Positions 2,183 to 39,399 of a DNA stretch of 52,526 bases are shown here, piece after piece. Source of the DNA: an uncultured Clostridia bacterium (GTDB taxonomy: Bacteria > Bacillota > Clostridia > Christensenellales > Aristaeellaceae); assembly GCA_937934775.1 (NCBI GenBank), contig CALGYL010000180.1, positions 1-52,526 of the forward strand. The letters run 5' to 3'. Positions within the stretch are counted from its first letter, which is position 1, and each line of letters begins with the position of its first letter. The notes under the pieces were generated by a model. The model ran no database searches. It worked only from the letters and a program-made list of their open reading frames with translations, and was not told the origin of the DNA. Made by a program: the position numbers and the translations under genes.

Positions 2183-2185
2183 TCC

Positions 2186-4882: not shown

Positions 4883-4903
4883 AGCGCAAAAGAATGCGGG
4901 AGC

Positions 4904-4927
4904 GGGCCATGCCTTTGGGCATGGCCC
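4904..4927 (+). terminator. perfect 10-bp hairpin between the SBP and permease genes (attenuator or mRNA stabiliser)
   Basis: GGGCCATGCC-TTTG-GGCATGGCCC followed by the pyrimidine-rich CTCCTCCTTCTTT. The position after the SBP gene is typical of differential expression within ABC operons. Confidence 0.5.
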
Positions 4928-4963
4928 CTCCTCCTTCTTTAGCATAGCTGGGAGGTTCTCCGT

Positions 4964-6624: not shown

Positions 6625-6625
6625 A

Positions 6626-8331: not shown

Positions 8332-8387
8332 TTTCCTCACGCTTGTGGAACGAGCGCGCATCGGGCGCGCGGAAAGGACGGGGCAGC

Positions 8388-10295: not shown

Positions 10296-10368
10296 GGCGC
10301 GCCGGGAGGAAGATGCGTGAACGCATCACCGCCCACTCGCGCCCCGCCGTTTCAGTGTTGGAGGGAAA

Positions 10369-14718: not shown

Positions 14719-14916
14719 TGGATCTGCTCCTTATGTGTGCCGCCGCGCGTATCGGGCCGTCGTTGGCGGGGCGTTGTCGCGTTTCTCAAACCCTGCCCCC
14801 GCTGGGGCAAAGCGCGGCGGGAATATTCGTATTCGGGCTTCGCCGGATGGGAAGAAATGTATAAGAAACGGACGACCGCCGGGGATGAACCGGCGGCCGT
14901 GTCCGAGCTGGAAAAA

Positions 14917-24537: not shown

Positions 24538-25155
24538 CTAGATGGTGTATTCGATGGCGCTCGCGTCCCTTCGGGTTTCGGGGTTGAAGATCAGCACGCA
24601 TTCTCGCTTCTCCACCGGCCCCAGGTTGTAATGGCCCGTGTCCTCGCTGTTGAAGACATCCCAGTGGATTTTTCGGTTTGCGCGGTCCGGCTGATCCGGG
24701 ACGTTGACGATTCCGGCATTCTTGAAATCGTGGGGCCAGAAATAAGGATCGAAAGCCTCGATGGTCTCGCCTTTTGCGCCTGTCAAAAGGATGTAATGCC
24801 CGCAGTCCAGCATCACCCGCAAAACCGCCGCGCCGCCCTGCTGCAGCGCGGCGACAATCCGGCTGTTCTGCCCCATGAAGACCTCCTCCGGCGCGAGCAC
24901 TTCGCAGCGGACGGGCCATTTTTTCATCCGCCCATACTGGTTGAGCCAGTTGGCCAAAAACGTCATCGCGATGGCGCTGGTGCCTTCCTTGCACGCCTCG
25001 CCGTCGCAGTTATAGCAGTCCATAGAGTACAGGTTGATGAATTTAATGATCTCCGGATGAATGTCCTTCCGGTCATACAGGAAGCTCACGGCGTTTCTCA
25101 GCGCGGTCGGCCCGCAGTCGAACTCCGTCGCCTGATAGCTCAGCGGATTGCGCAT
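24538..25155 (-). CDS. C39-like (papain-fold) cysteine peptidase domain protein
   Basis: 205-aa ORF. The N-terminal QATEFDCGPTAL resembles the Q…CG catalytic-Cys motif of peptidase C39-like domains, and a later CGHYILL is a candidate catalytic His. No signal peptide and no ABC-exporter fusion. Confidence 0.6.
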   Translation of the reverse strand: MRNPLSYQATEFDCGPTALRNAVSFLYDRKDIHPEIIKFINLYSMDCYNCDGEACKEGTSAIAMTFLANWLNQYGRMKKWPVRCEVLAPEEVFMGQNSRIVAALQQGGAAVLRVMLDCGHYILLTGAKGETIEAFDPYFWPHDFKNAGIVNVPDQPDRANRKIHWDVFNSEDTGHYNLGPVEKRECVLIFNPETRRDASAIEYTI

Positions 25156-25268: not shown

Positions 25269-25297
25269 TTGACATGGGACGGAACGCGGCGTATAAT
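25269..25297 (+). promoter_or_regulatory. consensus sigma-A promoter of the metC-like/cysK-like pair
   Basis: TTGACA (25269-25274), 17 nt, TATAAT (25292-25297). Confidence 0.55.
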
Positions 25298-25343
25298 TAT
25301 ATCATAGTATTCAGATATGAAAAAAGATATTGGAGCGATGCAC

Positions 25344-26498
25344 ATGAGCGAATGGACTTTGGAATCCAAACTCATCCACGCGGGGCTGGACGGCGATCCG
25401 GCGACCGGTGCGGTCAACGTGCCGATCTACCAGACCTCCACATACCGTCAGACGGAGTTGGGCGGACACCCGGCCTGGGAGTACTCCCGTACCGGCAACC
25501 CTACCCGCGCGGCGCTGGAAAAGCTGATTTCAGACCTCGAAGGCGGCGACCGGGGCTTCGCATTCGCCGGCATGGCGGCCATCGGCGCGGTGCTCATGCT
25601 TCTGAACGCGGGCGACCGCGTACTGGTGCCGGGGAACGTCTACGGCGGCACATACCGGATTTTGGACAAAGTGTTCAGCCGTTTCGGGCTGACCTATTCT
25701 CTGGTGGACGCGTCCGACCCTGCGAAACTGGAGAAGGAAATCCCCGGCGATGCGAAGATGCTGTTGGTGGAGAGCCCCGCGAACCCGCTGATGACGGTGG
25801 CGGACCTCCGCGCGCTGGCCGGGGTTTCCAAGCGCAAGGGGCTTCTCATGGCGGTAGACAATACATTCCTGACGCCTTACTACCAGCGACCCATCGAGCT
25901 TGGCGCGGACATCGTGCTCCACAGCGCCACCAAGTATCTGGGCGGGCACTCGGATCTCATCGCGGGTCTCGCGGTGGTCAAAGACCCGGCGCTCGCGGAA
26001 AAACTGGCCTTCATCCAGAACGCCACCGGCGGCATCCTGCAGCCGTTTGATTCGTTCCTTCTGATCCGCGGCATGAAAACGCTGGGCGTGCGCATGGAGC
26101 GGCACACGGAAAACGCGCTGTACACCGCGGAAATGCTTTCCAGGCACCCGGCGATAAAAAAGGTGTACCACCCGGGCCTTCCGACGGACCCCGGGTATGA
26201 AATCCAGAAGCGGCAGGCGTCCGGCACGGGCGGCGTCTTCTCCTTCGAACTGAAGGAGGGGTACGACGTGGGGAAGGTTCTCGCGTCGGTCAGGCTGATC
26301 GCGCTGGCGGAGAGCCTGGGCGGCGTGGAATCCCTTGTGTGCCACCCGGCGACGATGACCCACGCGTCCATCCCGGAGGAAATCCGGCGGCATCTCGGCA
26401 TCACCGACAGGCTGATTCGGCTCTCCGCGGGCATCGAGCATAAAGAGGACATCGCGCGGGACCTTCTGGCCGCGCTGGAAGCGGGAAAGGAGCATTGA
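25344..26498 (+). CDS. Cys/Met-metabolism PLP-dependent enzyme (cystathionine beta-lyase / gamma-synthase family)
   Basis: Family signatures …VNVPIYQTSTY… and …SATKYLGGHSD… (PLP lysine). The track start is 25317; ATG 25344 has better spacing from GGAG. Confidence 0.85.
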   Translation: MSEWTLESKLIHAGLDGDPATGAVNVPIYQTSTYRQTELGGHPAWEYSRTGNPTRAALEKLISDLEGGDRGFAFAGMAAIGAVLMLLNAGDRVLVPGNVYGGTYRILDKVFSRFGLTYSLVDASDPAKLEKEIPGDAKMLLVESPANPLMTVADLRALAGVSKRKGLLMAVDNTFLTPYYQRPIELGADIVLHSATKYLGGHSDLIAGLAVVKDPALAEKLAFIQNATGGILQPFDSFLLIRGMKTLGVRMERHTENALYTAEMLSRHPAIKKVYHPGLPTDPGYEIQKRQASGTGGVFSFELKEGYDVGKVLASVRLIALAESLGGVESLVCHPATMTHASIPEEIRRHLGITDRLIRLSAGIEHKEDIARDLLAALEAGKEH

Positions 26499-26500
26499 GC

Positions 26501-27442
26501 ATGCGGTATTATGACGGCGTCAAGGCACTGATCGGCAACACCCCTCTGGTGAAGCTAAACCACGTCGGCGCGCCGGAGGGCGCGAACCTGTTCGCGAAGC
26601 TGGAACTGTGGAACCCCGGCGGCAGCGTCAAGGACCGGATCGGCCTGAAGATGCTCGAAGCCGCGGAAAACAGCGGGCAGCTGAAACCCGGCGGCGCGAT
26701 CATCGAAGCCACCGCCGGGAATACCGGCCTGGGCATCGCGATCGCGGCGCTCAACCGGGGATACCGGGTTGTCTTCATTGTACCCACCAAGTTCTCCGTC
26801 GAAAAGCAGACGCTGCTCCGCGCGCTGGGCGCGGAAGTCGTAAACACCCCGCGGGAGGGCGGCATGCTGGGCGCGGCGGAGGAGGCGGAGCGGCTGAGGC
26901 GGCTGATTCCCGGCGCGGTTTCCATGAAGCAGTTTGAAAACCCAGCAAACCCGCTCGCCCACTACGAGGGCACCGGCCCGGAGATTTGGGATGCGCTGGA
27001 TGGACAGGTAGATTACCTCGTGGCGGGCGCAGGCAGCGGCGGCACGTTCACCGGCGCGGTGCGCTATCTCAAAGAGCGAAATCCCGGCGTTCAGGGCGTG
27101 CTCGCCGACCCGGACGGCTCCACGATGGGCGGCGGCAAAACGCATTGCTACGAGATGGAAGGCATTGGCAACGACTTCATCCCTGTTACGATGGACATGA
27201 CGCTGGTGGATCGGGTGATCAAGGTGACCGACGAGCAGGCGTTCTCCGGCGCGCGGCGGCTCGCGTCGCGGGAGGGCATCTTTGCGGGTTCGTCTTCGGG
27301 CGCGGCGCTGTCGGCCGCGCTGGAACTGGCCCGGTCCGGCGCAAAGGGCAACATCGCGCTGATCCTCCCCGACCGCGGCGACCGTTACTTCTCCAAGGGA
27401 TTGTATTTGGCGCCGGACACGGCTGGACGGGAAGAATTGTAA
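26501..27442 (+). CDS. cysK: cysteine synthase / O-acetylserine sulfhydrylase family PLP enzyme
   Basis: …IGNTPLVKLN…NPGGSVKDRI… and …GAGSGGTFTG… are typical of the CysK/CBS fold-type II family. RBS GGGAAAGGAG. The metC-like stop overlaps the upstream TTG. Confidence 0.85.
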   Translation: MRYYDGVKALIGNTPLVKLNHVGAPEGANLFAKLELWNPGGSVKDRIGLKMLEAAENSGQLKPGGAIIEATAGNTGLGIAIAALNRGYRVVFIVPTKFSVEKQTLLRALGAEVVNTPREGGMLGAAEEAERLRRLIPGAVSMKQFENPANPLAHYEGTGPEIWDALDGQVDYLVAGAGSGGTFTGAVRYLKERNPGVQGVLADPDGSTMGGGKTHCYEMEGIGNDFIPVTMDMTLVDRVIKVTDEQAFSGARRLASREGIFAGSSSGAALSAALELARSGAKGNIALILPDRGDRYFSKGLYLAPDTAGREEL

Positions 27443-27458
27443 ATTTCCCGAACGCCGC

Positions 27459-27488
27459 TTGACATGAGGCTTGACCCGATGCTATACT
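27459..27488 (+). promoter_or_regulatory. candidate sigma-A promoter of the nitrogenase-like operon
   Basis: TTGACA (27459-27464), 18 nt, TATACT (27483-27488), 17 nt after the cysK stop. Confidence 0.45.
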
Positions 27489-27551
27489 CTTCTCAACGAA
27501 AATCCATTATAACATATAGGAATTATCAAGATTGATTTGGGGGCGATAACC

Positions 27552-27644
27552 ATGACCACGAGGAAGATGGCCCGCATGTGCCCGATGTGCGTCATGTGCA
27601 TGACGCGTTCGTTGCGCATCGCTCGGCCATGCCTGTCAACTTAG
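27552..27644 (+). CDS. candidate regulatory leader peptide, Met/Cys-rich (30 codons)
   Basis: GGGGG RBS 8 nt upstream of the ATG. It encodes MTTRKMARMCPMCVMCMTRSLRIARPCLST: 6 Met and 4 Cys codons, with 4 Met and 3 Cys codons packed into codons 9-17. An intrinsic terminator follows, ahead of the structural genes. Confidence 0.5.
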   Translation: MTTRKMARMCPMCVMCMTRSLRIARPCLST

Positions 27645-27680
27645 GCTTATCCTGAAGCCTTCGACAAGAGCAAACCACGG

Positions 27681-27705
27681 GCGGAGCGCTGCGCTCCGCT
27701 TTTTT
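27681..27705 (+). terminator. intrinsic terminator (attenuator) in the operon leader
   Basis: GCGGAGCG-CTG-CGCTCCGC followed directly by TTTTTT. It lies between the leader ORF and the nifH-like start at 27810. Confidence 0.7.
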
Positions 27706-27809
27706 GCACACTTTTGACCCGAAATCCACCCGGCAAAGCATCCGTTCGCTTTATACCACTGCAGCAGTAAAGCGTCGGTCCAAAATCCACACGATGGGGG
27801 TAATGACTG

Positions 27810-28685
27810 TTGGCCAGGAAACTCAGGCAGATCGCGATCTACGGAAAAGGCGGAATCGGAAAATCCACCACCACCTCCAACCTCTCGGCGGCGCTCTCGG
27901 AAATGGGCTACAGGGTAATGCAGTTCGGCTGCGACCCGAAGGCCGACTCTACCAACACGCTCCGGGGCGGCAGCTACATCCCGACGATCCTTGACCTTCT
28001 TCGGGAGAACAGCACGGTGGACGCGCACGATGCCATCTTCAAAGGCTTTGGCGGCATCTGGTGCGTGGAGGCGGGCGGCCCGGCGCCGGGCGTGGGCTGC
28101 GCGGGGCGCGGCATCACCACGGCGGTGACCCTTCTCAAACAGCAGCGCATTTTTGAGGAGCTGGAACTGGACTACGTGATCTACGACGTATTGGGCGACG
28201 TGGTGTGCGGCGGCTTCGCGGTACCCATCCGCGAGGGCATCGCGGAGCACGTATTCACCGTCACCTCCTCCGATTTCATGGCGGTCTATGCGGCCAACAA
28301 TCTGTTCAAGGGCATCCAGAAGTACTCCAATTCAGGCGGCGCGCTGCTGGGCGGGGTGATCGCCAATTCCATCAACCAGCCCTATCAAAAAGAGATTGTT
28401 GACGACTTCGTTCGGCGCACGAACACCCAGGTGATGCAGTACGTGCCCAGGTCTCTCACCGTCACCCAGTCAGAGCTGAAGGGACGGACCACCATCGAGG
28501 CCGCGCCGGACAGCCCGCAGGCCGAAATCTACCGGGAGCTGGCCCGAAGAGTAGACGCCCATGTGCAGTCGGGCGTGCCCTCTCCCCTCTCCACGCAGGA
28601 ACTGCGCGAGTGGGCGGACCGCTGGGCGGATGTACTCATCGGCATGGAGTCGGGCGAGGTACGGTCCCCCGCCGCCGGAATCTAG
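27810..28685 (+). CDS. nitrogenase iron protein-like ATPase (NifH/BchL/MarH family)
   Basis: P-loop [10 protein letters not shown]. Both [4Fe-4S] ligand contexts are present (GVGCAGRG and DVVCGGFA). TTG start with GGGGG 9 nt upstream. Confidence 0.9.
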
Positions 28686-28707
28686 AACCATCAAGGGAGG
28701 GTTTGCC

Positions 28708-30189
28708 ATGTCGAAAGTCAATCTCGCCGCTCCGGAGGTACAGATTCGGGAGATCCGGCTCGGCTCCATCACCGGATTCGAGGGCACCGCGGGGGAACTC
28801 GTCGGCTGCGCCCGGGCCGGGACGCTCAAAGACAGCGCCCGCTCCTTCAGCCAGTGCATGGGCTGCAGCTCCGGCAACGCCTTCTGCCAGCTTTCAATGA
28901 TCACCGACGCCGCCGTGGTCAACCACGCGCCGGTGGGCTGCGCGGGCGACTTCTTCGGGTTCAACTTCGTCTACCGGGTCGGCCAGATGGAGCGGGGACT
29001 GCCGAGCGTCACCGGGCGCTACTTCAATACCAACATCGAGGAGCAGGACACCATCTTCGACGCGACGGAAAAACTGAGCAAAGTGGTGCGCGAGGTCTAC
29101 GAGCGGGTGCACCCCAACGCCATTTTCATCACCACCTCCTGCGCTTCGGGCATCATCGGCGACGACGTGGAGGGTACGGCGAATGAGCTGACCGAAGAAC
29201 TGGGCATCCCGGTGGTCGCCTGCTTCTGCGAGGGCTTTAAATCCAAAATCTGGACCACCGGTTTTGATTCGGCCTATCACGCCATCGTCCGGAAGATCGT
29301 AAAGCCGCCCCGGCAAAAGACCAATAAGGTCAACATCATCAACTTCTGGGGCAGCCACATTTTTGAGGATCTTCTGCGGCCCCTGGGCTACGAACCGGAC
29401 TATATTGTGCCGTTTTCGACGGTTGAGCAGCTCTCCCACATCTCCGAGGCCGCGGCCACCATCCAGATCTGCCCGACGCTGGGCACGTACCTCGGCGCGG
29501 CGCTGGAGCAGGTATATTCTGTGCCGGAGATCAAGGCGCCGCCCGCCTACGGCGTTCAGGGCACGGACAATTGGCTGCGGGAACTTGGCAGGGTTCTGAA
29601 CCGCGAGGCGGAGATCGAGAAGCTGATCGAATCCGAGCACGCGCGGGTGCTGCCGCAGGTTGCTTTGTACCGGGAGAAGCTCTCCGGAAAGACCGCCTAT
29701 CTCACCGCGGGCGCGGCTCACGGCCACGCGCTGATCGCGCTGCTCCGCGAACTGGGGCTTACCGTACAGGGCGCGGCCATCTTCCACCACGACCCGATCT
29801 ACGACAACGGCGATCCGACCTCCGACGCGCTGGCCCATGATGTCCGAACCTACGGCGACGTCAAGCGATACAACGTGTGCAACAAGCAGGCGTACGAGCT
29901 GGTGAACATCTTAAACCGGGTGCGCCCGGACCTGATGGTCGCCCGCCACGGCGGGATGACATTATGGGGCGCGAAGCTGGGCATCCCGACGCTGCTCATC
30001 GGCGACGAACAGTTCGGCTTCGGCTATCAGGGCGTTCTGAACTACGCCGAGCGCATTCTGGAGGCGCTGGACAACCGCGAATTCGTGGAAAACCTCGCCC
30101 GCCACAGCCAGATGCCCTACACCGCCTGGTGGCTTTCGCAGAACCCCTATCATTTTCTGGGAGGAAACGCCCATGTCATGTCTCATTGA
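28708..30189 (+). CDS. nitrogenase component-1 alpha-like subunit (NifD/NifE-like)
   Basis: 494 aa from ATG 28708 (RBS AAGGGAGGG). NifD-like motifs: HAPVGC, TSCASGIIGDD, CEGF, QICPTLG. The track ORF starts earlier, at 28561, inside the nifH-like gene. Confidence 0.85.
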   Translation: MSKVNLAAPEVQIREIRLGSITGFEGTAGELVGCARAGTLKDSARSFSQCMGCSSGNAFCQLSMITDAAVVNHAPVGCAGDFFGFNFVYRVGQMERGLPSVTGRYFNTNIEEQDTIFDATEKLSKVVREVYERVHPNAIFITTSCASGIIGDDVEGTANELTEELGIPVVACFCEGFKSKIWTTGFDSAYHAIVRKIVKPPRQKTNKVNIINFWGSHIFEDLLRPLGYEPDYIVPFSTVEQLSHISEAAATIQICPTLGTYLGAALEQVYSVPEIKAPPAYGVQGTDNWLRELGRVLNREAEIEKLIESEHARVLPQVALYREKLSGKTAYLTAGAAHGHALIALLRELGLTVQGAAIFHHDPIYDNGDPTSDALAHDVRTYGDVKRYNVCNKQAYELVNILNRVRPDLMVARHGGMTLWGAKLGIPTLLIGDEQFGFGYQGVLNYAERILEALDNREFVENLARHSQMPYTAWWLSQNPYHFLGGNAHVMSH

Positions 30190-31489
30190 GCAGCCCCGGT
30201 ACACCTGCGCGCTGGGGGCACAGCAGACGGTGGTCGCCATTCGCCGCGCCTGCCCCATCGTACACGCGGGGCCGGGCTGCAGCGGAAAGATCAGCGCGCT
30301 GATCGGCCAGGGGGAGGGTTACGCCGGCGGCAACACCATCCCCTGCACCAATTCCTCCGAGAAGGAGATCGTCTATGGCGGCGAGGACAAACTGCGCACC
30401 GTGATCGAAGGCGCGTTTCAGGTGATCGACGCGGACCTGTTCGTGGTCCTGACCGGCTGCACTTCCGACATCGTGGGCGACGACGTCGCCAGCGTCACGG
30501 GCGAGTTTCAGACGGAAGATCGCCCCATCGTCTACTGCGAGACCGGCGGCTTTAAAAGCAGCAATTACGTCAGCCACGATCAGGTCGTGAACGCCATTAT
30601 TGACCAATACGTGGACAAATACTCAGAAAACCGGGCGGTGAACCCGAAGCTGGTCAATGTGTTCGCGACGCTGCCCTATCAGGACCCTTATTGGGAGGGC
30701 AACCTGGAGGAGCTGAAGCGCATTCTGACCGGACTGGGCCTGATGGTCAACATCCTCTTCGGGCAGCGCTCGAGGGGCGTATCTGAATGGCTCACCATCC
30801 CGAACGCGGCGCTGAACATCGTGGTCAGCGCATGGAGCGGCCTAGGCATCGCAAAGCATCTGGAACAGAAATACCAACAGCCCACCCTGCACTTCCCCTC
30901 CCTCCCCGTCGGCGGCGTGGAAACCACCCGCTTTCTACGGGCGGTGGCGGAAAAACTGAGCCTTCCCAAAGATCAGACGGAGGGCTTCATCAAAGACGAG
31001 GAGTGCAGGTTCTACACCCATCTCGAACGCATGGCCGACTTCATGCTGGAATTCCGCTACGGCCTGCCGCGAAGGTTTATCACCCTTCTGGACGCCACCT
31101 ACGCCGTGGGCGTGGGCAGATACCTGGTGAACGAGCTGGGCATCCTGCCTGGACGGCAATTCGTGGTGGACAACACGCCGGAGGAATTCCGGCCCGCCAT
31201 CCGGGATCAGTTCGCGAACATCTCCCCCAACCGCTCCGCCGCCGTGGACTTTGAAAACGACGCGGGCGCCATCCACAAGGCGGTCCGCGCGGACGACAAC
31301 CGTCAGCGCGCGCTGATTCTCGGAAGCTCGTGGGAGCGGGACCTGGCGAAGGACATTCATGCCGACCTTCTGATCTTAAGCCCCCCCGTGGCGCACCGGC
31401 TGGTGCTCTCCTGCGGTTACGCCGGGTATAACGGCGGTCTCCGGCTGATTGAGGACATTTATGATCGCGTTTTGGATACGTACCGCTGA
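30173..31489 (+). CDS. nitrogenase component-1 beta-like subunit (NifK/NifN-like)
   Basis: 438 aa. NifK-like Cys contexts: YTCALGA, HAGPGCSG, LTGCTSDIVGDD. It overlaps the alpha-like gene by 17 nt (translational coupling). GGGAGGA RBS. Confidence 0.85.
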   Translation: MSCLIEQPRYTCALGAQQTVVAIRRACPIVHAGPGCSGKISALIGQGEGYAGGNTIPCTNSSEKEIVYGGEDKLRTVIEGAFQVIDADLFVVLTGCTSDIVGDDVASVTGEFQTEDRPIVYCETGGFKSSNYVSHDQVVNAIIDQYVDKYSENRAVNPKLVNVFATLPYQDPYWEGNLEELKRILTGLGLMVNILFGQRSRGVSEWLTIPNAALNIVVSAWSGLGIAKHLEQKYQQPTLHFPSLPVGGVETTRFLRAVAEKLSLPKDQTEGFIKDEECRFYTHLERMADFMLEFRYGLPRRFITLLDATYAVGVGRYLVNELGILPGRQFVVDNTPEEFRPAIRDQFANISPNRSAAVDFENDAGAIHKAVRADDNRQRALILGSSWERDLAKDIHADLLILSPPVAHRLVLSCGYAGYNGGLRLIEDIYDRVLDTYR

Positions 31490-31503
31490 GAGGATGATTG
31501 CGC

Positions 31504-32292
31504 ATGGAACCGTTCGTCGCCATCGAAGGCCTGAAAAAGACCTTTCACACTCGGACCGGTGATGTGGAGGTCCTGAAGGGCGTCGATCTGTCGATTGAAA
31601 AGGGCGACATCTTCGGCGTCATCGGCTTCAGCGGCGCGGGAAAATCCACGATGATCCGGCTGATCAACCGGCTGGAATCGCCCGACGAGGGCCGGGTGAT
31701 GATCGACGGCACCGATGTGACCGGTCTCGACAAGGAAGAGCTGGTGCGCTACCGCCAGCGGATCGGCATGATCTTCCAGCAGTTCAACCTCTTCGATTCC
31801 CGCACGGTGTTTGGGAACGTGGCGTATCCGCTGGAGGTCGCGGGCATCGCCAAACGCCACATCCGCCCCAGGGTGGAGGAAATCCTGGAACTGGTGGGCC
31901 TGACCGACAAGCTGGACTGCTACCCCGGCCAGCTCTCCGGCGGACAGAAGCAGCGGGTGGGCATCGCAAGGGCGCTCGCGAACAAGCCGGAGGTGCTCTT
32001 AAGCGACGAGGCCACCAGCGCCCTGGACCCGAAGACCACGCTGTCCATTCTGGACCTTTTAAAGGACATCAACCGGCAGTTCGGCCTTACGATCCTCCTC
32101 ATTACCCACGAACTGGAGGTCATCCGCTACGCCTGCAACAACATGGCGGTGCTGGAGGATGGCAAAATCGTCGAATCCGGCCGCACACGGGAGGTCTTTG
32201 AGAATCCGGCGAGCCAGACCTCGAAACTCTTCATGAAAATCCATACGGAGTTTTCCAAAGACGTATGGCTGAAAGGAGGTGATGGGATCTGA
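31504..32292 (+). CDS. metN: methionine-type ABC transporter ATP-binding protein
   Basis: Walker A GFSGAGKST, signature LSGGQKQR, Walker B LLSDEATSALD. MetN-like N-terminus. ATG 31504 follows GAGAGGA. Confidence 0.85.
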   Translation: MEPFVAIEGLKKTFHTRTGDVEVLKGVDLSIEKGDIFGVIGFSGAGKSTMIRLINRLESPDEGRVMIDGTDVTGLDKEELVRYRQRIGMIFQQFNLFDSRTVFGNVAYPLEVAGIAKRHIRPRVEEILELVGLTDKLDCYPGQLSGGQKQRVGIARALANKPEVLLSDEATSALDPKTTLSILDLLKDINRQFGLTILLITHELEVIRYACNNMAVLEDGKIVESGRTREVFENPASQTSKLFMKIHTEFSKDVWLKGGDGI

Positions 32293-32387
32293 ATACCTAT
32301 AAACACACGCTGTGGGAAGTCCTGAAAAGCGCTTTCGGCCATGACGTATGGAAGATCGTCTGGCCCGCCGTCGGGCAAACGCTGTAC

Positions 32388-32999
32388 ATGACGCTACTGA
32401 CCACATTGTTTACGCTGGTGTTCGGTCTGATGCTGGGCATTCTGCTGTTCGCAACCGACCGGGAGGGCGTCAGGCCCCTGCCCGTATTCAACCGGGTGCT
32501 GGGTTCCGTCATCAACGTGCTGCGCTCGCTGCCGTCGATGATCCTGATCATCCTGACGCTTCCGCTTTCCAGGCTCGTCATCGGGCACGCCTACGGTCCG
32601 GAGGCCTGCATCCTGGCGCTGGTCGCCAGCTGCGTGCCAATGTACGCGAGGCTGGTGGAAGGTTCTCTCCGGGAAGTTGAGAAAGGCAAGACCGAAGCCG
32701 CCCGCGCCATGGGTTCAAGCAATTCCTCGATCATCCTGAAGGTGCTGATCCCGGAAGCCCTGCCCTCTCTGATCCGCTCGTTTACGGTGGCCGTGATCGT
32801 GGTGATCTCCACGACGACCCTCGCCGGTTCTTTTGGCGCGGGCGGCCTGGGCGACGTGGCGGTCCGGTTCGGTTACTCCCGGTTCAAGACCGACATCCTG
32901 ATCGCGGCGGTCGTGGTACTCGTAGTCATGGTGCAGGGCATCCAGTTCCTGGGCGACCGGGCCAGCAAGTCCATCGCCCGCAAACGGTTCATCGTCTAG
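32388..32999 (+). CDS. metI: methionine-type ABC transporter permease
   Basis: Polytopic MetI-like ORF. 32388 is the first ATG, but the frame is open from 32283 and the conserved N-terminal helix appears to start upstream (see the CTG-start finding). Confidence 0.85.
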   Translation: MTLLTTLFTLVFGLMLGILLFATDREGVRPLPVFNRVLGSVINVLRSLPSMILIILTLPLSRLVIGHAYGPEACILALVASCVPMYARLVEGSLREVEKGKTEAARAMGSSNSSIILKVLIPEALPSLIRSFTVAVIVVISTTTLAGSFGAGGLGDVAVRFGYSRFKTDILIAAVVVLVVMVQGIQFLGDRASKSIARKRFIV

Positions 33000-33040
33000 A
33001 CTCAAATCAATCGAATAATGAATTGAGAAGGAGAATTTCC

Positions 33041-33874
33041 ATGAAGAAAATTCTTGCCATCGTGCTCGTTTTGTCTCTTTTTGTCAGCGTGACCGCTCTT
33101 TCGGAGGCGACGGCAACGCCCGCGCCCGAAGCGACGCCCCTTGCGACCTTCAACCCCCGCGTGACGCTGAAAGTGCTGGCCGACGTGGTCCCCCACTCCG
33201 AGCTTCTGGAGTTCGTCAAGCCCAAGCTGGCCGAACAGAGCATTGACCTGGAAATCACCATCGCTCAGAACGACCACGGCAACGACGACACCGCCTCCGG
33301 CGAGTTCGACGTCAACTTCTTCCAGCATGTACCCTACCTGAATTCTGTCGTGGCGGAGAAGGGTCTCGATTTGGCCCCGGCCGGCGCGATCCATGTGGAG
33401 CCGATCGGCTTCTACTCCCAGAAGTACAAGACGAAAGAAGAGATTCCGGACGGCGCGGTCGTCGGCGTGCCGAACGACACCACCAACGAGTACCGCGCGC
33501 TGAAAATCCTGGAGCAAAACGGCTTCATCAAGCTGCGGAGCGACCTCGCGACCTATGAAGCGACCATTCAGGACATCACCGAATACGTGAAGCCCATCAA
33601 GATTGAGGAGATCGACGCCGCGCAGCTGGTCCGCCTGCTGCCGGACCTTGACGGCGCGATCATCAACACCAACCGCGTGCTGGAGGCGGGCATCGACGCC
33701 AACTCCGCGCTGTTCCGCGAAGGCGCGGATTCGCCCTACGCGAACGTTCTGGTCACCACCAAGGAGCGTGTGAACGATCCGGCCATCGTGGCGCTGTACC
33801 ACGCGCTGACCACCGAAGAGGTGCGCCAGTTCATTCTTGAAAAGTACCAGGGCGCGGTCATCCCGGCGTTCTAA
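33041..33874 (+). CDS. metQ: MetQ/NlpA-family substrate-binding protein
   Basis: 277 aa from ATG 33041 (RBS GAAGGAGA). Signal peptide MKKILAIVLVLSLFVSVTALSEA. NlpA-family character (…FFQHVPYLN…, …VGVPNDTTNEYRAL…). Confidence 0.85.
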   Translation: MKKILAIVLVLSLFVSVTALSEATATPAPEATPLATFNPRVTLKVLADVVPHSELLEFVKPKLAEQSIDLEITIAQNDHGNDDTASGEFDVNFFQHVPYLNSVVAEKGLDLAPAGAIHVEPIGFYSQKYKTKEEIPDGAVVGVPNDTTNEYRALKILEQNGFIKLRSDLATYEATIQDITEYVKPIKIEEIDAAQLVRLLPDLDGAIINTNRVLEAGIDANSALFREGADSPYANVLVTTKERVNDPAIVALYHALTTEEVRQFILEKYQGAVIPAF

Positions 33875-33884
33875 GAAAAACAAA

Positions 33885-33929
33885 GGCGGGGGGGGCCGGA
33901 GGAGCGGGTTGCTCCCCTGGCCCCCCGCC
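33885..33929 (+). other. very GC-rich nested hairpin inside the operon (between metQ and the nifX-like gene)
   Basis: GGCGGGGGGGGCC…GGCCCCCCGCC outer arms enclose GGAGGAGC-GGGTT-GCTCCCCT. No U-tract. Confidence 0.5.
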
Positions 33930-33958
33930 GCAATGATCGATTGAATGGAGGTGGCTGT

Positions 33959-34300
33959 ATGCCCCACCGCATCGCGCTGGCCAGCATATCCGGAAAGTTC
34001 GTCGATACCCACTTCGGCCACGCCGAGCGCTTCGCGATTGTGGACCTGTTCTCCGATCGGTATGAGCTGGTGGAACTGCGCAAGGTACGGCGCGCCTGCG
34101 GCCCGAGCGGCCACGACGAACGCGCGTTTGACGCGATCCTGGACACCCTTACCGACTGTGAAGCGCTCCTGGTCGAGCGCATCGGCTACGGCGCGGCCCA
34201 GTACGTGGCCGCCAAGGGCATCCGCGTGTTCGAAGCGCCCTACCCCATCGACGACGTACTGAACAAGCTGATGGCGGATCGGATCCTAGATAAACCCTGA
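33959..34300 (+). CDS. NifX/NifB-C-terminal-like (dinitrogenase iron-molybdenum cofactor biosynthesis domain) protein
   Basis: 113 aa from ATG 33959 (RBS GGAGGTG): MPHRIALASISGKFVDTHFGHAERFAIVDL…. The HFGHA…F.I.D pattern is typical of the NifX/NafY/NifB-C domain. Confidence 0.7.
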   Translation: MPHRIALASISGKFVDTHFGHAERFAIVDLFSDRYELVELRKVRRACGPSGHDERAFDAILDTLTDCEALLVERIGYGAAQYVAAKGIRVFEAPYPIDDVLNKLMADRILDKP

Positions 34301-34314
34301 AGGGAGGCGCACAC

Positions 34315-35226
34315 ATGGCTGAAGTCATCCTTACTGAAGTCCGCGCCCGCGCGGGCGCGAAGCTCGCCGCCTGCAAACGCCACCCCTGCCTCAGCGGCGA
34401 GGCGCATCTGAAATACGGGCGCATCCACCTGCCGGTCAGTCCCGCCTGCAACATTGGCTGCCGGTTTTGCGGACGGGGCATCCACTCAGAAAACGTACCC
34501 GGCGCGGCGGGGCGGATTCTGACGCCGGAAGAGGCGGCGGACGTCCTCGGCCGCGCGCTCGAATTGTGCCCGGAGATCAGTGTCGCCGGCGTTGCGGGGC
34601 CGGGCGACGCGCTGGCAACCGATCACGCCATCGAGACCTTCCGAATCATCAAGGACAGATACCCGCACATCATCAAATGCCTGAGCACCAACGGCCTGAA
34701 GCTGGCAGAAAAAATCCCCCAACTCAAGGAGATCGGCCTTGATTCCCTGACAGTAACCATCAATTCGCTGGTTCCGGAGATCCTTGAAAAGATCAACGCC
34801 TTCACCGTGACCGACGGCCGGGTTCTCACCGGCATCGAATCCGCCCGCGCGCTGATCGCCGCGCAAAAACGGGGGCTGGAGGCCGCCGGGCGGGAGCTGG
34901 ACGCGGTCATCAAGATCAATACCGTGCTTGTTCCGGGCGTCAACGACCTGGAAATCGCGTCCATCGCGGAGAAAACCGCCGCGCTTGGCGCGTCGATCAT
35001 GAACATCATTCCCCTGATTCCGCAGCATGGCATGGCGGACAAAAAGGAACCCTCCTGTCAGGAACTGAACGCGGCGCGGGAAGCCGCCGCGCCGTTTCTG
35101 GATGTGTTCCGGCACTGTAAGCGCTGCCGCGCGGACGCCGCGGGGGTCATGGGCAAAAATCAGGACATCTCAAAACAACTGTACGGCGACGAAGCGCCCG
35201 CGGGCGATTCGTTCTCGCACGGATGA
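34315..35226 (+). CDS. nifB: NifB-like radical SAM protein (core domain only)
   Basis: HPCLSGEAHLKYGRIHLPVSPACNIGCRFCGR closely mirrors the NifB N-terminal HPC…H….R.H..V.P.CN..C.YC motif with a CX3CX2C radical-SAM cluster site. 303 aa. Confidence 0.8.
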   Translation: MAEVILTEVRARAGAKLAACKRHPCLSGEAHLKYGRIHLPVSPACNIGCRFCGRGIHSENVPGAAGRILTPEEAADVLGRALELCPEISVAGVAGPGDALATDHAIETFRIIKDRYPHIIKCLSTNGLKLAEKIPQLKEIGLDSLTVTINSLVPEILEKINAFTVTDGRVLTGIESARALIAAQKRGLEAAGRELDAVIKINTVLVPGVNDLEIASIAEKTAALGASIMNIIPLIPQHGMADKKEPSCQELNAAREAAAPFLDVFRHCKRCRADAAGVMGKNQDISKQLYGDEAPAGDSFSHG

Positions 35227-35694: not shown

Positions 35695-37146
35695 CTATTC
35701 TCTATGCCTGTTTTGCATCCGTACTCTATCCCTGGGCTTCAGGTACCCGAGCCTTTCCGTTTCCAAGTCGGACCGGTTAATCAGCGTCGTGTTGAAATCA
35801 TGCCAGTGGAACGGAGCCCAGGGCGACATGTAGGGGGTCCCAAAGCTGTTGAGCGAAACCAACTCGATGGCGATGGCTGTCAAAAAAACGGTAAAGCCGA
35901 AAAAACCCAGCGCCCCGGTGAACATGATCAGCGCGAACTTCAAGATTCGGAACGGGTTGATCAGCGTATAGTCCGGAATCGCGAAGGAGGCCAGGAGCGA
36001 TACGGCCGCGATGGTCAGAAGCACCGGGCTGAAAAACCCCGCCGCGATGGCGGACTGGCCGATCACGATGGCGCCCACGATGCCGATGGCCGGACCGATC
36101 TGTTTGGGCACCCGGACGAGCGCCTCCCGGAGCAATTCCACGATGAATTCCAGGATCAGCGCACCCACCATCGCGCTGAAGGGCACGTTGGCGCGCAACT
36201 GCGCCAGCGAAATGGCATAATCGCTGGGCAGGACTTCGGTGTGGAAAGAGGTGATGGCGACGAAGATGCTGGACGCGGTCAGCGCGGTCGCGATGGACAT
36301 ATACCGGAGCAGCCGGTTGAACATCCCGAAGTACTTGTTGTCGTACCGGTCGTCGCAAGAATAAAAGAATTCGCTGAAAACCTTGGGCGCGTACAGCGCG
36401 ATGCCGCTGCCGTCTGCCAGCACCATAACCTTGCCTTCCAGGAGTGTCGAGTACGCCATGTCCGATCGCTCGATCAGGCCCATCTGAGGAAAGAGTATCT
36501 TGTTGTCATTGAGCAGGAAGGCCTGCAGTTCGCCAGATTCGCCGATGCCATCCACGCGAATATCCCCGATGCGTTTGAGCACCTCGTTCACGGCAGTGTC
36601 GTTTGCGATGTCCTGAATATAGAGCACCGCCACGCGGGTCCGGGTCCTCACGCCCACCTCCATGTACCGGATGCGCAGGTTTGGGTCCTTGACCCGGTAC
36701 CGGACCAGCGACAGGTTTGCGTCCAGGTTCTCGGTAAAGCAGTCTTGCCCGCCGCGGACGGTGTAGGTCAACTGCGGCGTAGGCACCGACCGTTTTTCCA
36801 CCTTCTTCTGATTGATGACGAGGTAGCTCTCGTCGGTTGAAAACATAAGTACCGCCATGCCGGATAGGATGAACTCCTGAATCCTGGCCCAATCCGTCTC
36901 CACCTTGGCCGAGTCGGCGTAGAGAATGCCGTCCAGCGCCTCCTGCGCGGTCAGCCGCGCCCGGCCGGAGGCGCACGCCAGGACCAATGGCTTGACAACG
37001 TTTTCCGAGAGCGCCAGCCTGTCGGTGAGCTGCTGGATGTACATCAGCTCCGCCCTGCCGCCCCGGTAGGGAACGGAGCGCCTAGTGATGTCCAGATCGC
37101 CCGTCTGGATGGAATCGATCCATCGTTCAAATTCTCCGTGCCTCAT
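35695..37146 (-). CDS. gerA: spore germination protein, GerA/GerKA family (A subunit)
   Basis: The ORF is open from 37179; ATG 37146 follows GAAGGAGAGGA. GerAA-family character, with a C-terminal membrane domain. Confidence 0.85.
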   Translation of the reverse strand: MRHGEFERWIDSIQTGDLDITRRSVPYRGGRAELMYIQQLTDRLALSENVVKPLVLACASGRARLTAQEALDGILYADSAKVETDWARIQEFILSGMAVLMFSTDESYLVINQKKVEKRSVPTPQLTYTVRGGQDCFTENLDANLSLVRYRVKDPNLRIRYMEVGVRTRTRVAVLYIQDIANDTAVNEVLKRIGDIRVDGIGESGELQAFLLNDNKILFPQMGLIERSDMAYSTLLEGKVMVLADGSGIALYAPKVFSEFFYSCDDRYDNKYFGMFNRLLRYMSIATALTASSIFVAITSFHTEVLPSDYAISLAQLRANVPFSAMVGALILEFIVELLREALVRVPKQIGPAIGIVGAIVIGQSAIAAGFFSPVLLTIAAVSLLASFAIPDYTLINPFRILKFALIMFTGALGFFGFTVFLTAIAIELVSLNSFGTPYMSPWAPFHWHDFNTTLINRSDLETERLGYLKPRDRVRMQNRHRE

Positions 37147-37159
37147 GGCATCCTCTCCT

Positions 37160-38293
37160 TCACTGAAGATGATCCACACTGTAGTCCATCATGTAGGTCG
37201 ATTTCAGGTTCACCTTTACCTCCGGCGTGATGGCCGCCCGGGTGAAGGCCTCGTTCCAATCCATCGAATCCGCGATCACCGGATAAGCAACGCGGAACGC
37301 ATCGTCCAATTGCAGGTAATCCGTATGGAACGTCGTCTGAGCCTGATAGATCGCGTCCCGCACGTCCTGATCGATCCTCTGCGTCAGCATGTCTGTCATC
37401 GCCTTGTTGTCCGCGTCATTGAAACCGTACGGAAGCTTCTTGTCGCCGTACTCCAGCGTGGCGTCGAAATTCAGCGAAATTTTGAAGGCGGGCGCGCCGT
37501 TTTCGTAAAATGCCTGGATCGTCCGCTTGGTCAAGTCGGCCTCCACCGTGTATTGAACGCCGTTGAACGGAATGATGTACATGGATTTTGCGTTGTCCGT
37601 CTTCAGAATGTTCAAGCCCTTGCACGCCTCGATGGGAATAAAGCCGATCACCCTGGTATCGTTGACCACGGAATACCCCGTCAACGCAATCTCCTGCTCC
37701 TGCAGGCCGACGCAGGGGATCAGGATGCCGGTGTACGAGTCGCTCAGGTTTTCGAGCAGCCGCGACGTGGTCCGGGAAAATCCTTCTCCGGACGATTCTA
37801 AAGTCGTCAGTGTGTTTTCCGCCGAATAGCCGAGGGACAGGTTTTGATCTTTCATTGCTTTAAAAAGGTCGTCCAGATCGTCCCGGGTGACGAGGGTAAT
37901 CACCTTTTTGCGATAGGTCTCGTCCGCCCGGAGCCTGTACAGGTATTCCAGCAGGTGCTCCCTGGCGAAATTCTCGGTGACCAGCAGCGTTCGCACTCCG
38001 CTGATGTACAGCGGCATATCCAGCTGCCGGTTCAGATTTTGCCGGGCTTCGGCCAGCGTCCTTCCATGACCTTTCAGCAAAAAGTACTTCGGGGACGTGC
38101 CACCGCCGCTGCCGGTACCGCTCTGGCCCGCTTGAATGTTGGCGAACTCCACGTAGAACCAAAATTCCCCGTCCCGGCTGTCCACGGCAATCGTGGTGGC
38201 GATCAGCTTTTTATTGATATCCTTCGAGTCTCCCATGGCGGCGAACGCGGCCGTGAGCAGCACCAGCAGAATCAGCAGCGCGAGCTTGACCAC
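37160..38293 (-). CDS. gerC: germinant receptor C subunit (Ger(x)C family)
   Basis: 377-aa ORF with an N-terminal hydrophobic signal. …KLIATTIAVDSRDGEFWFYVEFAN… matches the Ger(x)C N-domain pattern. GTG start. Confidence 0.8.
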   Translation of the reverse strand: MVKLALLILLVLLTAAFAAMGDSKDINKKLIATTIAVDSRDGEFWFYVEFANIQAGQSGTGSGGGTSPKYFLLKGHGRTLAEARQNLNRQLDMPLYISGVRTLLVTENFAREHLLEYLYRLRADETYRKKVITLVTRDDLDDLFKAMKDQNLSLGYSAENTLTTLESSGEGFSRTTSRLLENLSDSYTGILIPCVGLQEQEIALTGYSVVNDTRVIGFIPIEACKGLNILKTDNAKSMYIIPFNGVQYTVEADLTKRTIQAFYENGAPAFKISLNFDATLEYGDKKLPYGFNDADNKAMTDMLTQRIDQDVRDAIYQAQTTFHTDYLQLDDAFRVAYPVIADSMDWNEAFTRAAITPEVKVNLKSTYMMDYSVDHLQ

Positions 38294-38313
38294 GCGGCTT
38301 ATGCCTTGATTCT

Positions 38314-39399
38314 TCAGGGCGCATCACCCCGCTTTCCCTTGACCATAGCCAGAATGAGCAGCGTTCCCGGAAGAAGGATGCTGGAGACCAGCACCAGGTA
38401 GGGTGCGCAGGCATCCAATACTTCGGAGATGTTCTTGATGCCCAGCGCGAACATGCACAGCGTGTAGAGCACAACGCTGCAGACGAGCGTAATGATATGG
38501 CGTCCAACCTTGGAGAACAGCTTGCAGGCAAATTCCAGTATGGCCAGGAACACCATGATCATGCCGGCAAACAGGCTCGTAAGGCCCACGGTAAGGTAGA
38601 AGATGTCAGGCCGCTCGATGATGGGAATGTTGACGACCTTGATCGCCTCGATGAACGCGTCGCTGTAGAAGGCCGTGTTGTTGATGCCCAGAATGGATAT
38701 GGTGCTGTCCACAATCAGCACATACAAAAGCCCGATGAACACAAGCGTCAAAAAGGCCACCCGCGCGGCTCTCTTGTTGCATTTGGCAAATGGCACGATC
38801 AAGAGCACCTCGATGCCGCCGTAGGGGAATAAAAGCTTGGGGATTGCGGCCGGTAAATCCTTGAATTTATCCGGGTTGATCAGCGGCCGGATGTTGTAGA
38901 TCATGCCCTGGGGCAGCATGATGGCGCAAATCGATATCGTGGTCAACAGAAAGGCGAACCCATACAGCTCAAAGAGCCGGGCTACGTTGGTGATGCCCTT
39001 GAAGGATACGAAGGCGAACAGCGCCACACTGACGGCCAGCATGACAGCCTGCGGCGTCTTGGGCAGAAAGTTCGAGGACAGGAAGTTGACCAACCGGAGC
39101 TTCAAATAGACGCCAACCACTATAAAGTAAAGGATGTAGTAAACAGCGATCAGGCGGGAGGCCAGTTTGCCGGCAATCTCCTGGCTGTAGTCGAACATCA
39201 CCTTGCCCCGAAAACGGTTGTTCAGCGACGCGATCGCCGCGGCGGCAAGCCCGAATACCAGCGCTACCGCCAACACCAACATCCAACCGTTCCGCCCCGC
39301 AGATTGCGCCACGATCTTGGGTAAATCGACGGAGGTGTAGGAGGTGAGGATCAGGATGAGAATGAAGAACATCTGCCGGTTTGTGATGCTGTTCGCCAA
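38314..39399 (-). CDS. gerB: germinant receptor B subunit (spore germination amino-acid-permease-like)
   Basis: 361-aa polytopic ORF with the N-terminal …ITNRQMFFILILIL… typical of GerAB/GerKB. TTG start. Confidence 0.85.
   Translation of the reverse strand: MANSITNRQMFFILILILTSYTSVDLPKIVAQSAGRNGWMLVLAVALVFGLAAAAIASLNNRFRGKVMFDYSQEIAGKLASRLIAVYYILYFIVVGVYLKLRLVNFLSSNFLPKTPQAVMLAVSVALFAFVSFKGITNVARLFELYGFAFLLTTISICAIMLPQGMIYNIRPLINPDKFKDLPAAIPKLLFPYGGIEVLLIVPFAKCNKRAARVAFLTLVFIGLLYVLIVDSTISILGINNTAFYSDAFIEAIKVVNIPIIERPDIFYLTVGLTSLFAGMIMVFLAILEFACKLFSKVGRHIITLVCSVVLYTLCMFALGIKNISEVLDACAPYLVLVSSILLPGTLLILAMVKGKRGDAP

Follow-up and report, generated by a model that had tools for sequence, protein, structure and literature searches.

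A Group IV-A nitrogenase-like operon with a MetNIQ-type importer and a methionine/cysteine-rich leader, and its probable link to sulfur starvation

Gene content, leader and importer of the operon

Here we describe a nitrogenase-like operon in a 52.5-kb stretch of DNA from an uncultured Clostridia bacterium (contig CALGYL010000180.1), which we refer to throughout as the window. The locus under study (27459-35226) consists of a leader and eight co-directional genes encoding a NifH-like reductase (H), two nitrogenase-like subunits (D and K), a MetNIQ-type ATP-binding cassette (ABC) importer, a NifX-like protein and a NifB-type radical S-adenosylmethionine (SAM) enzyme (Table 1). Genes were identified with Pfam and NCBIfam profiles and their curated cutoffs, and closest matches were taken from solved structures. 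The D and K genes overlap by 17 nt, the other spacers within the operon are short, and no internal terminator is predicted on the + strand within the eight genes. A preliminary description had already listed these genes, their coordinates and the D/K overlap, together with a pyridoxal-phosphate (PLP) enzyme of cysteine/methionine metabolism and a CysK-like gene upstream, and a Met/Cys-rich leader open reading frame (ORF) followed by a terminator; all of these are borne out by our profile matches and ORF analysis, and the gene boundaries agree with those called independently on two further public assemblies encoding an identical D protein.

Table 1. Coordinates of the operon, its leader and the adjacent upstream genes in the window
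Feature	Position	Strand	Evidence or remark
Sigma-70-type promoter of the PLP/CysK-like pair, TTGACA-17-TATAAT	25269..25297	+	12/12 consensus matches
Cys/Met-metabolism PLP enzyme, closest to MccB-type cystathionine gamma-lyase/homocysteine desulfhydrase and MetC/MetB	25317..26498	+	PF01053 (Cys_Met_Meta_PP) E=2e-141; NF005810 524 bits, cutoff 594
CysK/MccA-like PLP sulfhydrylase (cysteine synthase / O-acetylserine-dependent cystathionine beta-synthase type)	26495..27442	+	PF00291 (PALP) E=6e-70; TIGR01137 343 bits and TIGR01136 332 bits, both below cutoff
Operon promoter-like site, TTGACA-18-TATACT, extended -10 TG	27459..27488	+	sigma-70-like, 11/12 matches; kept in L001
Conserved box ...AACATATAGGAATTA, candidate operator	27500..27526	+	between -10 element and leader Shine-Dalgarno; core CATATRGGAWT
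Leader ORF, 30 codons, MTTRKMARMCPMCVMCMTRSLRIARPCLST	27552..27644	+	Shine-Dalgarno GGGGG; Met/Cys run at codons 9-17
Predicted intrinsic terminator, 10-bp GC-rich stem, 3-nt loop, T6	27679..27705	+	downstream of leader ORF, before H gene
H, NifH-like ATP-dependent reductase, NfaH/MarH type	27810..28685	+	Fer4_NifH E=5e-100; P-loop GKGGIGKS; cluster ligands Cys97, Cys133
D, predicted catalytic alpha-type subunit, Group IV-A NflD/NfaD clade, 493 aa	28708..30189	+	Oxidored_nitro E=8e-76
K, beta-type subunit, NflK/NfaK, 438 aa	30173..31489	+	Oxidored_nitro E=2e-55
MetN-type ABC ATPase, ~262-264 aa	31498/31504..32292	+	ABC_tran; TIGR02314 325 bits, cutoff 500; start 31504 by gene call
MetI-type ABC permease	32388..32999	+	BPD_transp_1; NF008049 156 bits, cutoff 212
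MetQ/NlpA-family predicted substrate-binding lipoprotein	33023/33041..33874	+	NlpA profile; best solved structure 4k3f_A, E=7e-57
NifX/NafY-like small cofactor-binding protein	33959..34300	+	PF02579 (Nitro_FeMo-Co) E=3e-21
Minimal NifB-type radical-SAM enzyme, NfaB/MarB-like, without fused NifX domain	34315..35226	+	TIGR01290 238-239 bits over positions 9-281 of 441; motif CNIGCRFC

For comparison, a species scan with one genome each recovered relatives in 245 species, and the best 80 of these 245 loci (cited below by L number) were analysed. Nearly all come from Bacillota, with Ruminiclostridium, Clostridium, Sporomusa, Pelosinus, Paenibacillus, heliobacteria and Lachnospiraceae among the hosts, and a few from Coriobacteriales; the closest relative to the window among those scanned, L001 (92%), is from a Bacillota metagenome-assembled genome (MAG). 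Neighbour counts in the 80 loci refer to genes within 6 kb of the window-type D and on the same strand.

The leader of the operon has the layout of an attenuator, with a promoter, a Shine-Dalgarno sequence, an ORF of regulatory codons and a terminator arranged before the first structural gene. Methionine or cysteine occupies 9 of the 29 non-start codons of the leader ORF and seven of the nine codons within its run. Chance is an unlikely origin for this ORF, since among ~60,000 small ORFs in 1.29 Mb of sequence (the window plus related loci) nearly all of those equally rich in cysteine and methionine occupy the same kind of position. Furthermore, the window and L001 leaders can be aligned, with promoter, box, Shine-Dalgarno sequence, Cys/Met run and terminator all conserved, and the indels between their ORFs are multiples of three, keeping the frame. 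The conserved box occurs nine times in 1.235 Mb of related loci, seven times within the promoter region of a Group IV-A or sulfur gene, and presumably resembles the CymR operator of Bacillus subtilis. Beyond the window, box sites lie in L001 at ~193, L035 at ~4431(-), L042 at ~1602(-), L045 at ~4413(-), L027 at ~8870 and L050 at ~7615.

Constraint folding with a ribosome footprint of -15 to +12 nt predicts that the terminator leaves the minimum-energy fold only with the ribosome on codons 7-15, and an antiterminator fold in the window leader is plausible from this modelling. The arrangement shares its promoter, Shine-Dalgarno sequence, regulatory-codon ORF, terminator and, under one footprint model, a predicted alternative fold on stalling with ribosome-mediated attenuators such as those of trp, his and leu and the Cys-codon leaders of Actinobacteria and of Rhodobacterales cysS; unlike these, it mixes methionine with cysteine codons, resides in a Bacillota host, precedes a nitrogenase-like operon and matches no Rfam family. 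S-box and T-box elements are the usual means of such control in Bacillota. An Rfam riboswitch or T-box was considered for the window leader as well and rejected, with none detected at gathering thresholds across the whole window and only a spurious match at E<=1 in 27400-27850.

The importer differs from a canonical MetNIQ system in its ATPase, which aligns to positions 2-243 of the 343-position TIGR02314 model and has no C-terminal NIL/C2 regulatory domain. In canonical MetN (343 aa), this domain serves trans-inhibition by methionine. Of the MetN copies linked to such clusters, 36/37 are shorter than 290 aa (33/37 at 263-264 aa), and all but one are without the NIL/C2 domain. As the domain is missing from nearly all linked copies, and as all three components score below their MetNIQ cutoffs (MetQ with 132 bits against 374; MetN and MetI as in Table 1), the importer looks, from sequence, like a specialised MetNIQ-type subfamily. 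Matches of MetQ to solved structures were generic MetQ/NlpA proteins and held no pointer to the substrate.

Clade placement and active site

The preliminary description proposed a Mar-like system rather than N2 fixation, with reference to MarBHDK of Rhodospirillum rubrum, the methylthio-alkane reductase, which acts on volatile sulfides. Indeed, Mar proteins are the best solved-structure matches of all three enzyme components: D matches MarD (9fmg_A, E=4.5e-142; best true nitrogenase chain 1e-36), K matches MarK (9d9u_C, E=2.9e-129; best true nitrogenase chain 1e-12) and H matches MarH (9fmg_D, E=2.8e-151; NifH 1cp2 2.7e-88). We therefore considered Mar orthology, as suggested by these matches, and ruled it out because the same genomes or species carry closer Firmicute Mar orthologs. 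With R. rubrum MarD as query, we retrieved Firmicute proteins 75-81% identical to it, and true Firmicute Mar orthologs are found in Heliobacterium mobile (WP_155475353), Heliophilum fasciatum, Heliomicrobium gestii, Pelosinus propionicus, Clostridium and Thermoanaerobacterium. Beside the Mar ortholog, H. mobile, H. fasciatum and P. propionicus have a second D of the window type (76-80% identical to the window D); since much closer MarD orthologs co-occur with the window-type D in Firmicutes, the window D is not a Mar ortholog. A neighbour-joining tree of D (Kimura-corrected distances, 126 sequences, 100 bootstraps) likewise separates a window clade (98/100) from a Mar clade (100/100), with 44-47% identity between the window D and the latter; the deep branching order of this tree is unreliable, the node joining the window clade and Mar reaching only 45/100. 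Thus, of the earlier proposal, the exclusion of a canonical nitrogenase and a Mar-type active site stand (see below), whereas assignment to the Mar family does not.

By sequence, the window D and K belong to the clade called Group IV-A "Nfa". The window D shares 76-77% identity with NflD1 of H. fasciatum and H. mobile and 76% with homologs from Paenibacillus; its 98/100 clade includes many Paenibacillus species, the H. fasciatum locus L046, WP_155475363 (P0103, H. mobile NflDK1) and WP_161260453 (P0241, H. gestii NflDK1). The window-type D/K pair of H. fasciatum adjoins the only H, B and X genes of that genome, which identifies it as NflDK1, the candidate nitrogenase of the Heliophilum genome paper; there, NflDK1 is grouped with the NfaDK proteins of Endomicrobium proavitum and Paenibacillus riograndensis, that is, with Group IV-A (PMC9147875). 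A 2026 Chem Rev review names the group "Nfa, nitrogen fixation alternative" (PMC13474568). Genes of the Acetivibrio thermocellus type had already been termed "group IV-A" and associated with methionine and sulfur genes in a 2023 preprint (PMC10418091), and the proximity of Group IV NFL genes, including IV-A, to sulfur and methionine genes has been noted in both sources (PMC13474568; PMC10418091).

Group IV-A divides here into two sub-clades, joined at 100/100 support in the neighbour-joining tree, the one sister to that of the window containing A. thermocellus, Syntrophobotulus and others. By comparison of numbering only, the published cysteine positions of E. proavitum NfaD (50/53/60/78/81/146/257) fit the sister sub-clade, as represented by P0257 (49/52/59/77/80/145/256). 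The window sub-clade departs from the E. proavitum numbering in 81/81 sequences, which have Asp or Glu as residue 81 and spacings of 67 and 110. Endomicrobium itself was neither among the best 80 of the 245 relatives nor among the matches listed for a search with a sister-clade representative.

Several loci carry more than one pair of D/K genes. A second or third, more distant pair (27-55% identity) lies near the window-type pair in L005, L009, L011, L017, L018, L023, L026, L028, L029, L052, L066, L067 and L072, and these more distant second pairs often adjoin CysK-like genes; in L072, from a Coriobacteriales MAG, both IV-A sub-clades stand back to back. Three loci labelled Patescibacteria, Methanosarcina sp. 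and Methanosarcinales (L039, L041 and L054) have a D 75-78% identical to the Bacillota clade and are probably mis-binned contigs.

Turning to the metal clusters, residues were compared using the active-site list and R. rubrum MarD numbering of the MAR structure paper (PMC12552129). Each of the six P-cluster cysteines is kept (D Cys53/78/145, corresponding to MarD Cys66/91/158, and K Cys12/36/96, corresponding to MarK Cys32/56/121), as are the ligands of the [Fe8S9C] cluster, with Cys255 and Arg413-His414 of the window D equivalent to Cys270 and Arg428-His429 of MarD. The Mar hallmark Arg428 is thereby conserved, and so are, in MarD numbering, Cys73, Gln74, Trp195, Phe199 and His375. Within the S2B-site trio His194/Trp195/His375, however, only the latter two are kept, His194 being replaced by Ile181 in the window D (codon 29248-29250). 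This position holds His in 10/10 Mar-clade sequences and Ile (73), Val (7) or Gly (1) among the 81 window-clade sequences, which makes it a candidate specificity determinant on the strength of the alignment.

The window D lacks counterparts of the nitrogenase residues Val70, Gln191 and His195, having Cys-Gln, Trp and Phe instead, and the nitrogenase His442 loop is replaced by a Mar-type Arg-His loop. Against the curated NCBIfam cutoffs, D scores 125 bits for NifD (cutoff 654), 66 for VnfD (823) and 59 for AnfD (874), and K scores 67 for NifK (427). A canonical nitrogenase was considered and is excluded by these scores, far under all Nif/Vnf/Anf cutoffs, and by the replaced active-site residues. 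The best NCBIfam match of D is NifE (157 bits, cutoff 505). H, at 398.6 bits, lies just over the nifH cutoff of 394.35 (TIGR01287). The NifB-like protein matches the minimal archaeal NifB structures 7jma, 7bi7 and 6y1x (E ~1e-69) over residues 17-295 of 303. Given the Mar-type structure matches, the kept cluster ligands and the minimal NifB, the prediction of an enzyme of the L-cluster type, encoded together with a maturation pair of its own, is well supported.

Sulfur context, proposed function and alternatives

Across the 80 loci, the neighbours of window-type D are K (79 loci), NifX-like (49), MetN-type (36), H (34), MetI (34), MetQ (32), NifB-like (30) and CysK-like genes (24) and the MccB-like PLP enzyme (21), whose homologs in these 21 clusters are 57-61% identical to that of the window. 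One order that recurs is B-X-H-D-K-MetN-MetI-MetQ-X-PLP-CysK; in the window, these parts are arranged differently. O-acetylhomoserine (OAH)/O-acetylserine (OAS) sulfhydrylase genes are present in 33/80 loci. Such a gene abuts D-K in H. fasciatum (L046 6699-7982) and H. mobile (L053 6672-7964), ending no more than ~40 nt before the D start in these heliobacteria and 19 nt before it in H. fasciatum; these are heliobacteria whose NflDK1 has been proposed as the N2-fixing enzyme.

In seven loci (L025, L036, L037, L040, L044, L052 and L063), a SAM (S-box) riboswitch, called with Rfam and a covariance model built from the Rfam hits, immediately precedes the window-type D or H operon. In L037, L044 and L063 the transporter is under a SAM riboswitch of its own. 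Cys/Met leader ORFs occur in six further loci (L001, L035, L038, L042, L045 and L071), each with a Shine-Dalgarno sequence and with an intrinsic terminator 20-60 nt past the stop codon, ahead of H, B, MetN or OAH-sulfhydrylase genes. That two unrelated sensors of sulfur amino-acid supply appear to control orthologous operons is our strongest argument that the clade serves sulfur metabolism. The sulfur amino-acid context and regulation anticipated by the preliminary description are supported, in the window by the importer, the PLP genes and the leader, and in the relatives by SAM riboswitches. Separately, we observed a tandem glycine riboswitch adjoining the S-box-controlled MetNIQ-type operon of L063, a Peptostreptococcaceae locus (14760-14948, -).

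We consider it probable that the window encodes a sulfur-starvation operon, made up of a Group IV-A nitrogenase-like reductase (H2 + D2K2), a NifB/NifX maturation pair and a dedicated MetNIQ-type importer; gene content, the kept ligands and active-site residues, clade placement, the layout of leader and terminator, and the sulfur setting and SAM riboswitches that recur in orthologous loci are read directly from sequence, whereas attenuation, chemistry, substrate and importer-enzyme coupling are the parts of this model that we infer. When charged Met- or Cys-tRNA is scarce, a ribosome would stall in the Met/Cys run of the leader, the terminator would fail and transcription would read through into the operon, and a regulator acting at the operator-like promoter box may provide further repression. 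NifB and NifX would build an [Fe8S9C] L-type cluster and deliver it to D, with the H protein passing electrons, at the cost of ATP, via the P-cluster to this cluster. D/K would then reductively cleave the C-S bond of an organosulfur compound, probably an amino-acid-like thioether supplied by the importer and unlike the volatile Mar substrates. The released thiol (perhaps methanethiol, sulfide or homocysteine) would be converted into cysteine and methionine by the neighbouring CysK/MccA-like and MccB/MetC-like enzymes; in other genomes, the adjacent O-acetylhomoserine sulfhydrylase would do the assimilation. A substrate other than the volatile Mar ones is suggested by the dedicated importer, the His194 replacement and the coexistence with true Mar. 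Methionine itself is an unlikely substrate, as SAM riboswitches and Met codons point to an operon induced when methionine or SAM is low.

It is possible, although on the whole unlikely, that the reductase does act in sulfur metabolism while the MetNIQ-type genes represent merely co-regulated methionine uptake, with no channelling of substrate from importer to enzyme, such that the operon would be a fragment of a sulfur-starvation regulon. Transporter linkage is frequent rather than universal (36/80), and the transporters with SAM riboswitches of their own fit this explanation, methionine transporters being common members of the S-box regulon. However, the transporter is placed between K and X/B in the window, in many Bacillota MAGs and in Ruminiclostridium, with short spacers and no predicted terminator, and the NIL/C2-less MetN copies and sub-cutoff MetNIQ scores point to a specialised subfamily. 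Orthology to MarBHDK, with action on dimethyl sulfide and methylthioethanol, stands little chance of being correct. To the structure matches, the Arg428-His429 hallmark, most of the S2B-site residues and the sulfur gene context that speak for it, one can oppose the separate clades, the far closer Firmicute orthologs, the presence of both types in the same genomes or species and the replacement of His194 in all 81 clade members; moreover, diffusible volatile substrates would need no dedicated ABC importer, and even the closer R. palustris Mar homologs differ in substrate range or show no activity.

A further explanation, already put forward for E. proavitum and H. fasciatum, is a working alternative nitrogenase that does without NifEN and serves chiefly to fix N2. 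Here the homologs WP_155475363 and WP_161260453 count as NflDK1, grouped with E. proavitum NfaDK (PMC9147875), 15N2 and acetylene-reduction data are summarised in the 2026 review (PMC13474568), H passes the nifH cutoff, and both NifB and NifX are present in the operon. Conversely, D falls far below the NifD/VnfD/AnfD cutoffs, the equivalents of Val70, Gln191 and His195 are missing and the Arg-His loop is of the Mar type; the operon carries a Met/Cys leader and contains a MetNIQ-type importer, and orthologs of it have SAM riboswitches; the E. proavitum NfaD cysteine pattern fits the sister sub-clade and not that of the window; and the review itself raises the question of whether N2 fixation is the primary function of Nfa (PMC13474568). 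As the preliminary description had stated, nifE/N, nifV and PII genes are not found among the genes of the 52.5-kb window, and a search with a GlnB sequence found no PII homolog in the window or the 80 loci. We accordingly give this explanation only a small chance. Finally, D/K might form a NifEN-like metallocluster scaffold or maturase rather than a catalytic reductase, in keeping with NifE as the best NCBIfam match of D and with the adjacent NifB and NifX; this is very improbable, as the NifE score is far under its cutoff, the proteins are much closer to catalytic MarDK, a dedicated H is present and the window has no separate target enzyme beside D/K.

Several points nevertheless weigh against the sulfur-starvation model. 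The folding result for the window leader shifts under another ribosome footprint, and the same folding did not reproduce the loss of the terminator on stalling for most of the other leaders. Induction at low methionine, as implied by the SAM riboswitches and Met codons, is at odds with methionine as the substrate, and the importer could, as discussed above, be methionine uptake that is co-regulated but has no substrate link to the enzyme. The search for nifEN and nifDK covered the 52.5-kb window, and copies elsewhere in the genome are possible. In the literature, no enzyme of Group IV-A has been purified, E. proavitum takes up 15N2 and has an ammonium-repressed nfaH, and H. fasciatum, which has no canonical nitrogenase, is diazotrophic (PMC13474568). 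The diazotrophy of these two organisms is not explained by the sulfur model; it could be a side activity or reflect a difference between sub-clades.

Extending the sulfur-starvation model beyond the window, we tentatively suggest, with slightly less than even confidence, that the Bacillota branch of Group IV-A "Nfa" comprises sulfur-starvation-induced C-S bond reductases with an L-type iron-sulfur-carbide cluster, which would receive a non-volatile, amino-acid-like organosulfur substrate via a dedicated NIL-less MetNIQ-type importer. Control would depend on lineage, by Met/Cys leader attenuation, a CymR-like operator or SAM riboswitches, and the reported N2 reduction would be either a secondary activity or a trait of the sister sub-clade.

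Precedents and surroundings of the operon

The window adds a new member to a known clade, and its value lies in the regulatory evidence that it contributes for a sulfur role. Among characterised systems, R. rubrum MarBHDK (Group IV-C; PDB 9FMG, 9D9U) shares the H2 reductase, the D2K2 core, a NifB-type maturase without NifX domain and a setting among sulfur genes that include metNIQ homologs; it differs from the window in that the latter has its importer inside the operon and a predicted Met/Cys leader attenuator (SAM riboswitches in relatives), in addition to the clade and His194 differences given above. Gene set (B, H, D, K and X), protein length and cysteine layout are shared with the Group IV-A systems, namely E. 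proavitum NfaBHDK, H. fasciatum NflDK1 and Paenibacillus NfaDK; N2 fixation has been assigned to these in the literature, whereas the window operon has a methionine-type importer and a leader of the sulfur-amino-acid type. Rhodopseudomonas palustris NflDK3 (RPA2363-64) and the R. rubrum "thiol cluster", likened here by description, likewise place Mar-related D/K genes beside a putative methionine transporter and an O-acetylhomoserine sulfhydrylase, and are induced by sulfur limitation; unlike the window, they are proteobacterial and have no H or B of their own adjacent. The isethionate reductase IsrBHDK of Rhodobacter capsulatus (Group IV-F) is also nitrogenase-like and set in a sulfur context, serving anaerobic sulfur assimilation and clustering with an ABC importer (ssu/tau) for a non-volatile substrate; however, IsrDK lacks the P-cluster and L-cluster ligands kept in the window D/K, IsrB is not a full NifB, and the clade is a different one.

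These precedents bear on what had been thought new. Mar is not the only nitrogenase homolog known in sulfur metabolism, isethionate reductase being a second (PMC11423573). The joining of the reductase genes with a methionine importer is no novelty either, as our neighbourhood survey found MetNIQ-type genes linked in 36/80 loci (MetN 36, MetI 34, MetQ 32) and such links have been published for R. rubrum, R. palustris and Clostridia (PMC10418091 among them). A NifB homolog without NifX domain next to a separate NifX gene has been described before, as have Firmicute hosts, including endospore-forming heliobacteria. A Met/Cys leader attenuator on a nitrogenase-like operon, systematic S-box control of the IV-A branch and the clade-specific replacement of His194 were not found in the literature searched, and a full-text search for "SAM riboswitch" with "nitrogenase-like" gave nothing relevant.

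The function of Group IV nitrogenase-like enzymes is counted among the main open problems of the field in a 2026 review (PMC13474568). The window and its 80 relatives provide a consistent, testable case for placing the Bacillota IV-A branch in the sulfur-starvation response, and the position held by His194 in Mar and by Ile or Val in this branch could steer searches for the substrate. Orthologs in culturable Paenibacillus, Ruminiclostridium, Clostridium, Sporomusa and Pelosinus make the sulfur hypothesis directly testable. Furthermore, because H passes the curated nifH threshold, annotation pipelines would call it a nitrogenase iron protein, and nifH surveys can miscount such loci as diazotrophs.

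Elsewhere in the window, a GerA/GerAC/GerAB germination operon (35695-39399) supports the spore-forming host assumed in the preliminary description. Nothing obvious for molybdate transport was seen among the window genes, in agreement with that description, with one caveat: an ABC system at 3788-7633 (+), consisting of a SBP_bac_6 protein, two permeases and a TOBE-domain ATPase, shows a weak SBP_bac_11 match, so that a molybdate- or sulfate-type binding protein is conceivable there. This system adjoins eutB/eutA (818-3586, -), encoding ethanolamine ammonia-lyase. Other genes of the window include sugar and other ABC systems, TrkAH, an OAD beta subunit, Tex and RtcB. Two neighbouring paralogs at 8343-12282 each contain both a Ser/Thr protein-kinase domain and leucine-rich repeats and are preceded by a small helix-turn-helix protein. 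Divergent from the PLP/CysK-like operon lies a 205-aa ORF (24538-25155, -) that is coding-like in its GC content at third codon positions (GC3 0.80) and has no Pfam or NCBIfam match. Only ~20 nt separate the end of the consensus promoter of the PLP/CysK-like pair from the annotated start codon (ATG) of the PLP enzyme, and this short distance implies either a near-leaderless transcript or a true start at an in-frame ATG a few codons downstream (MKKDIGAMHMSEW).

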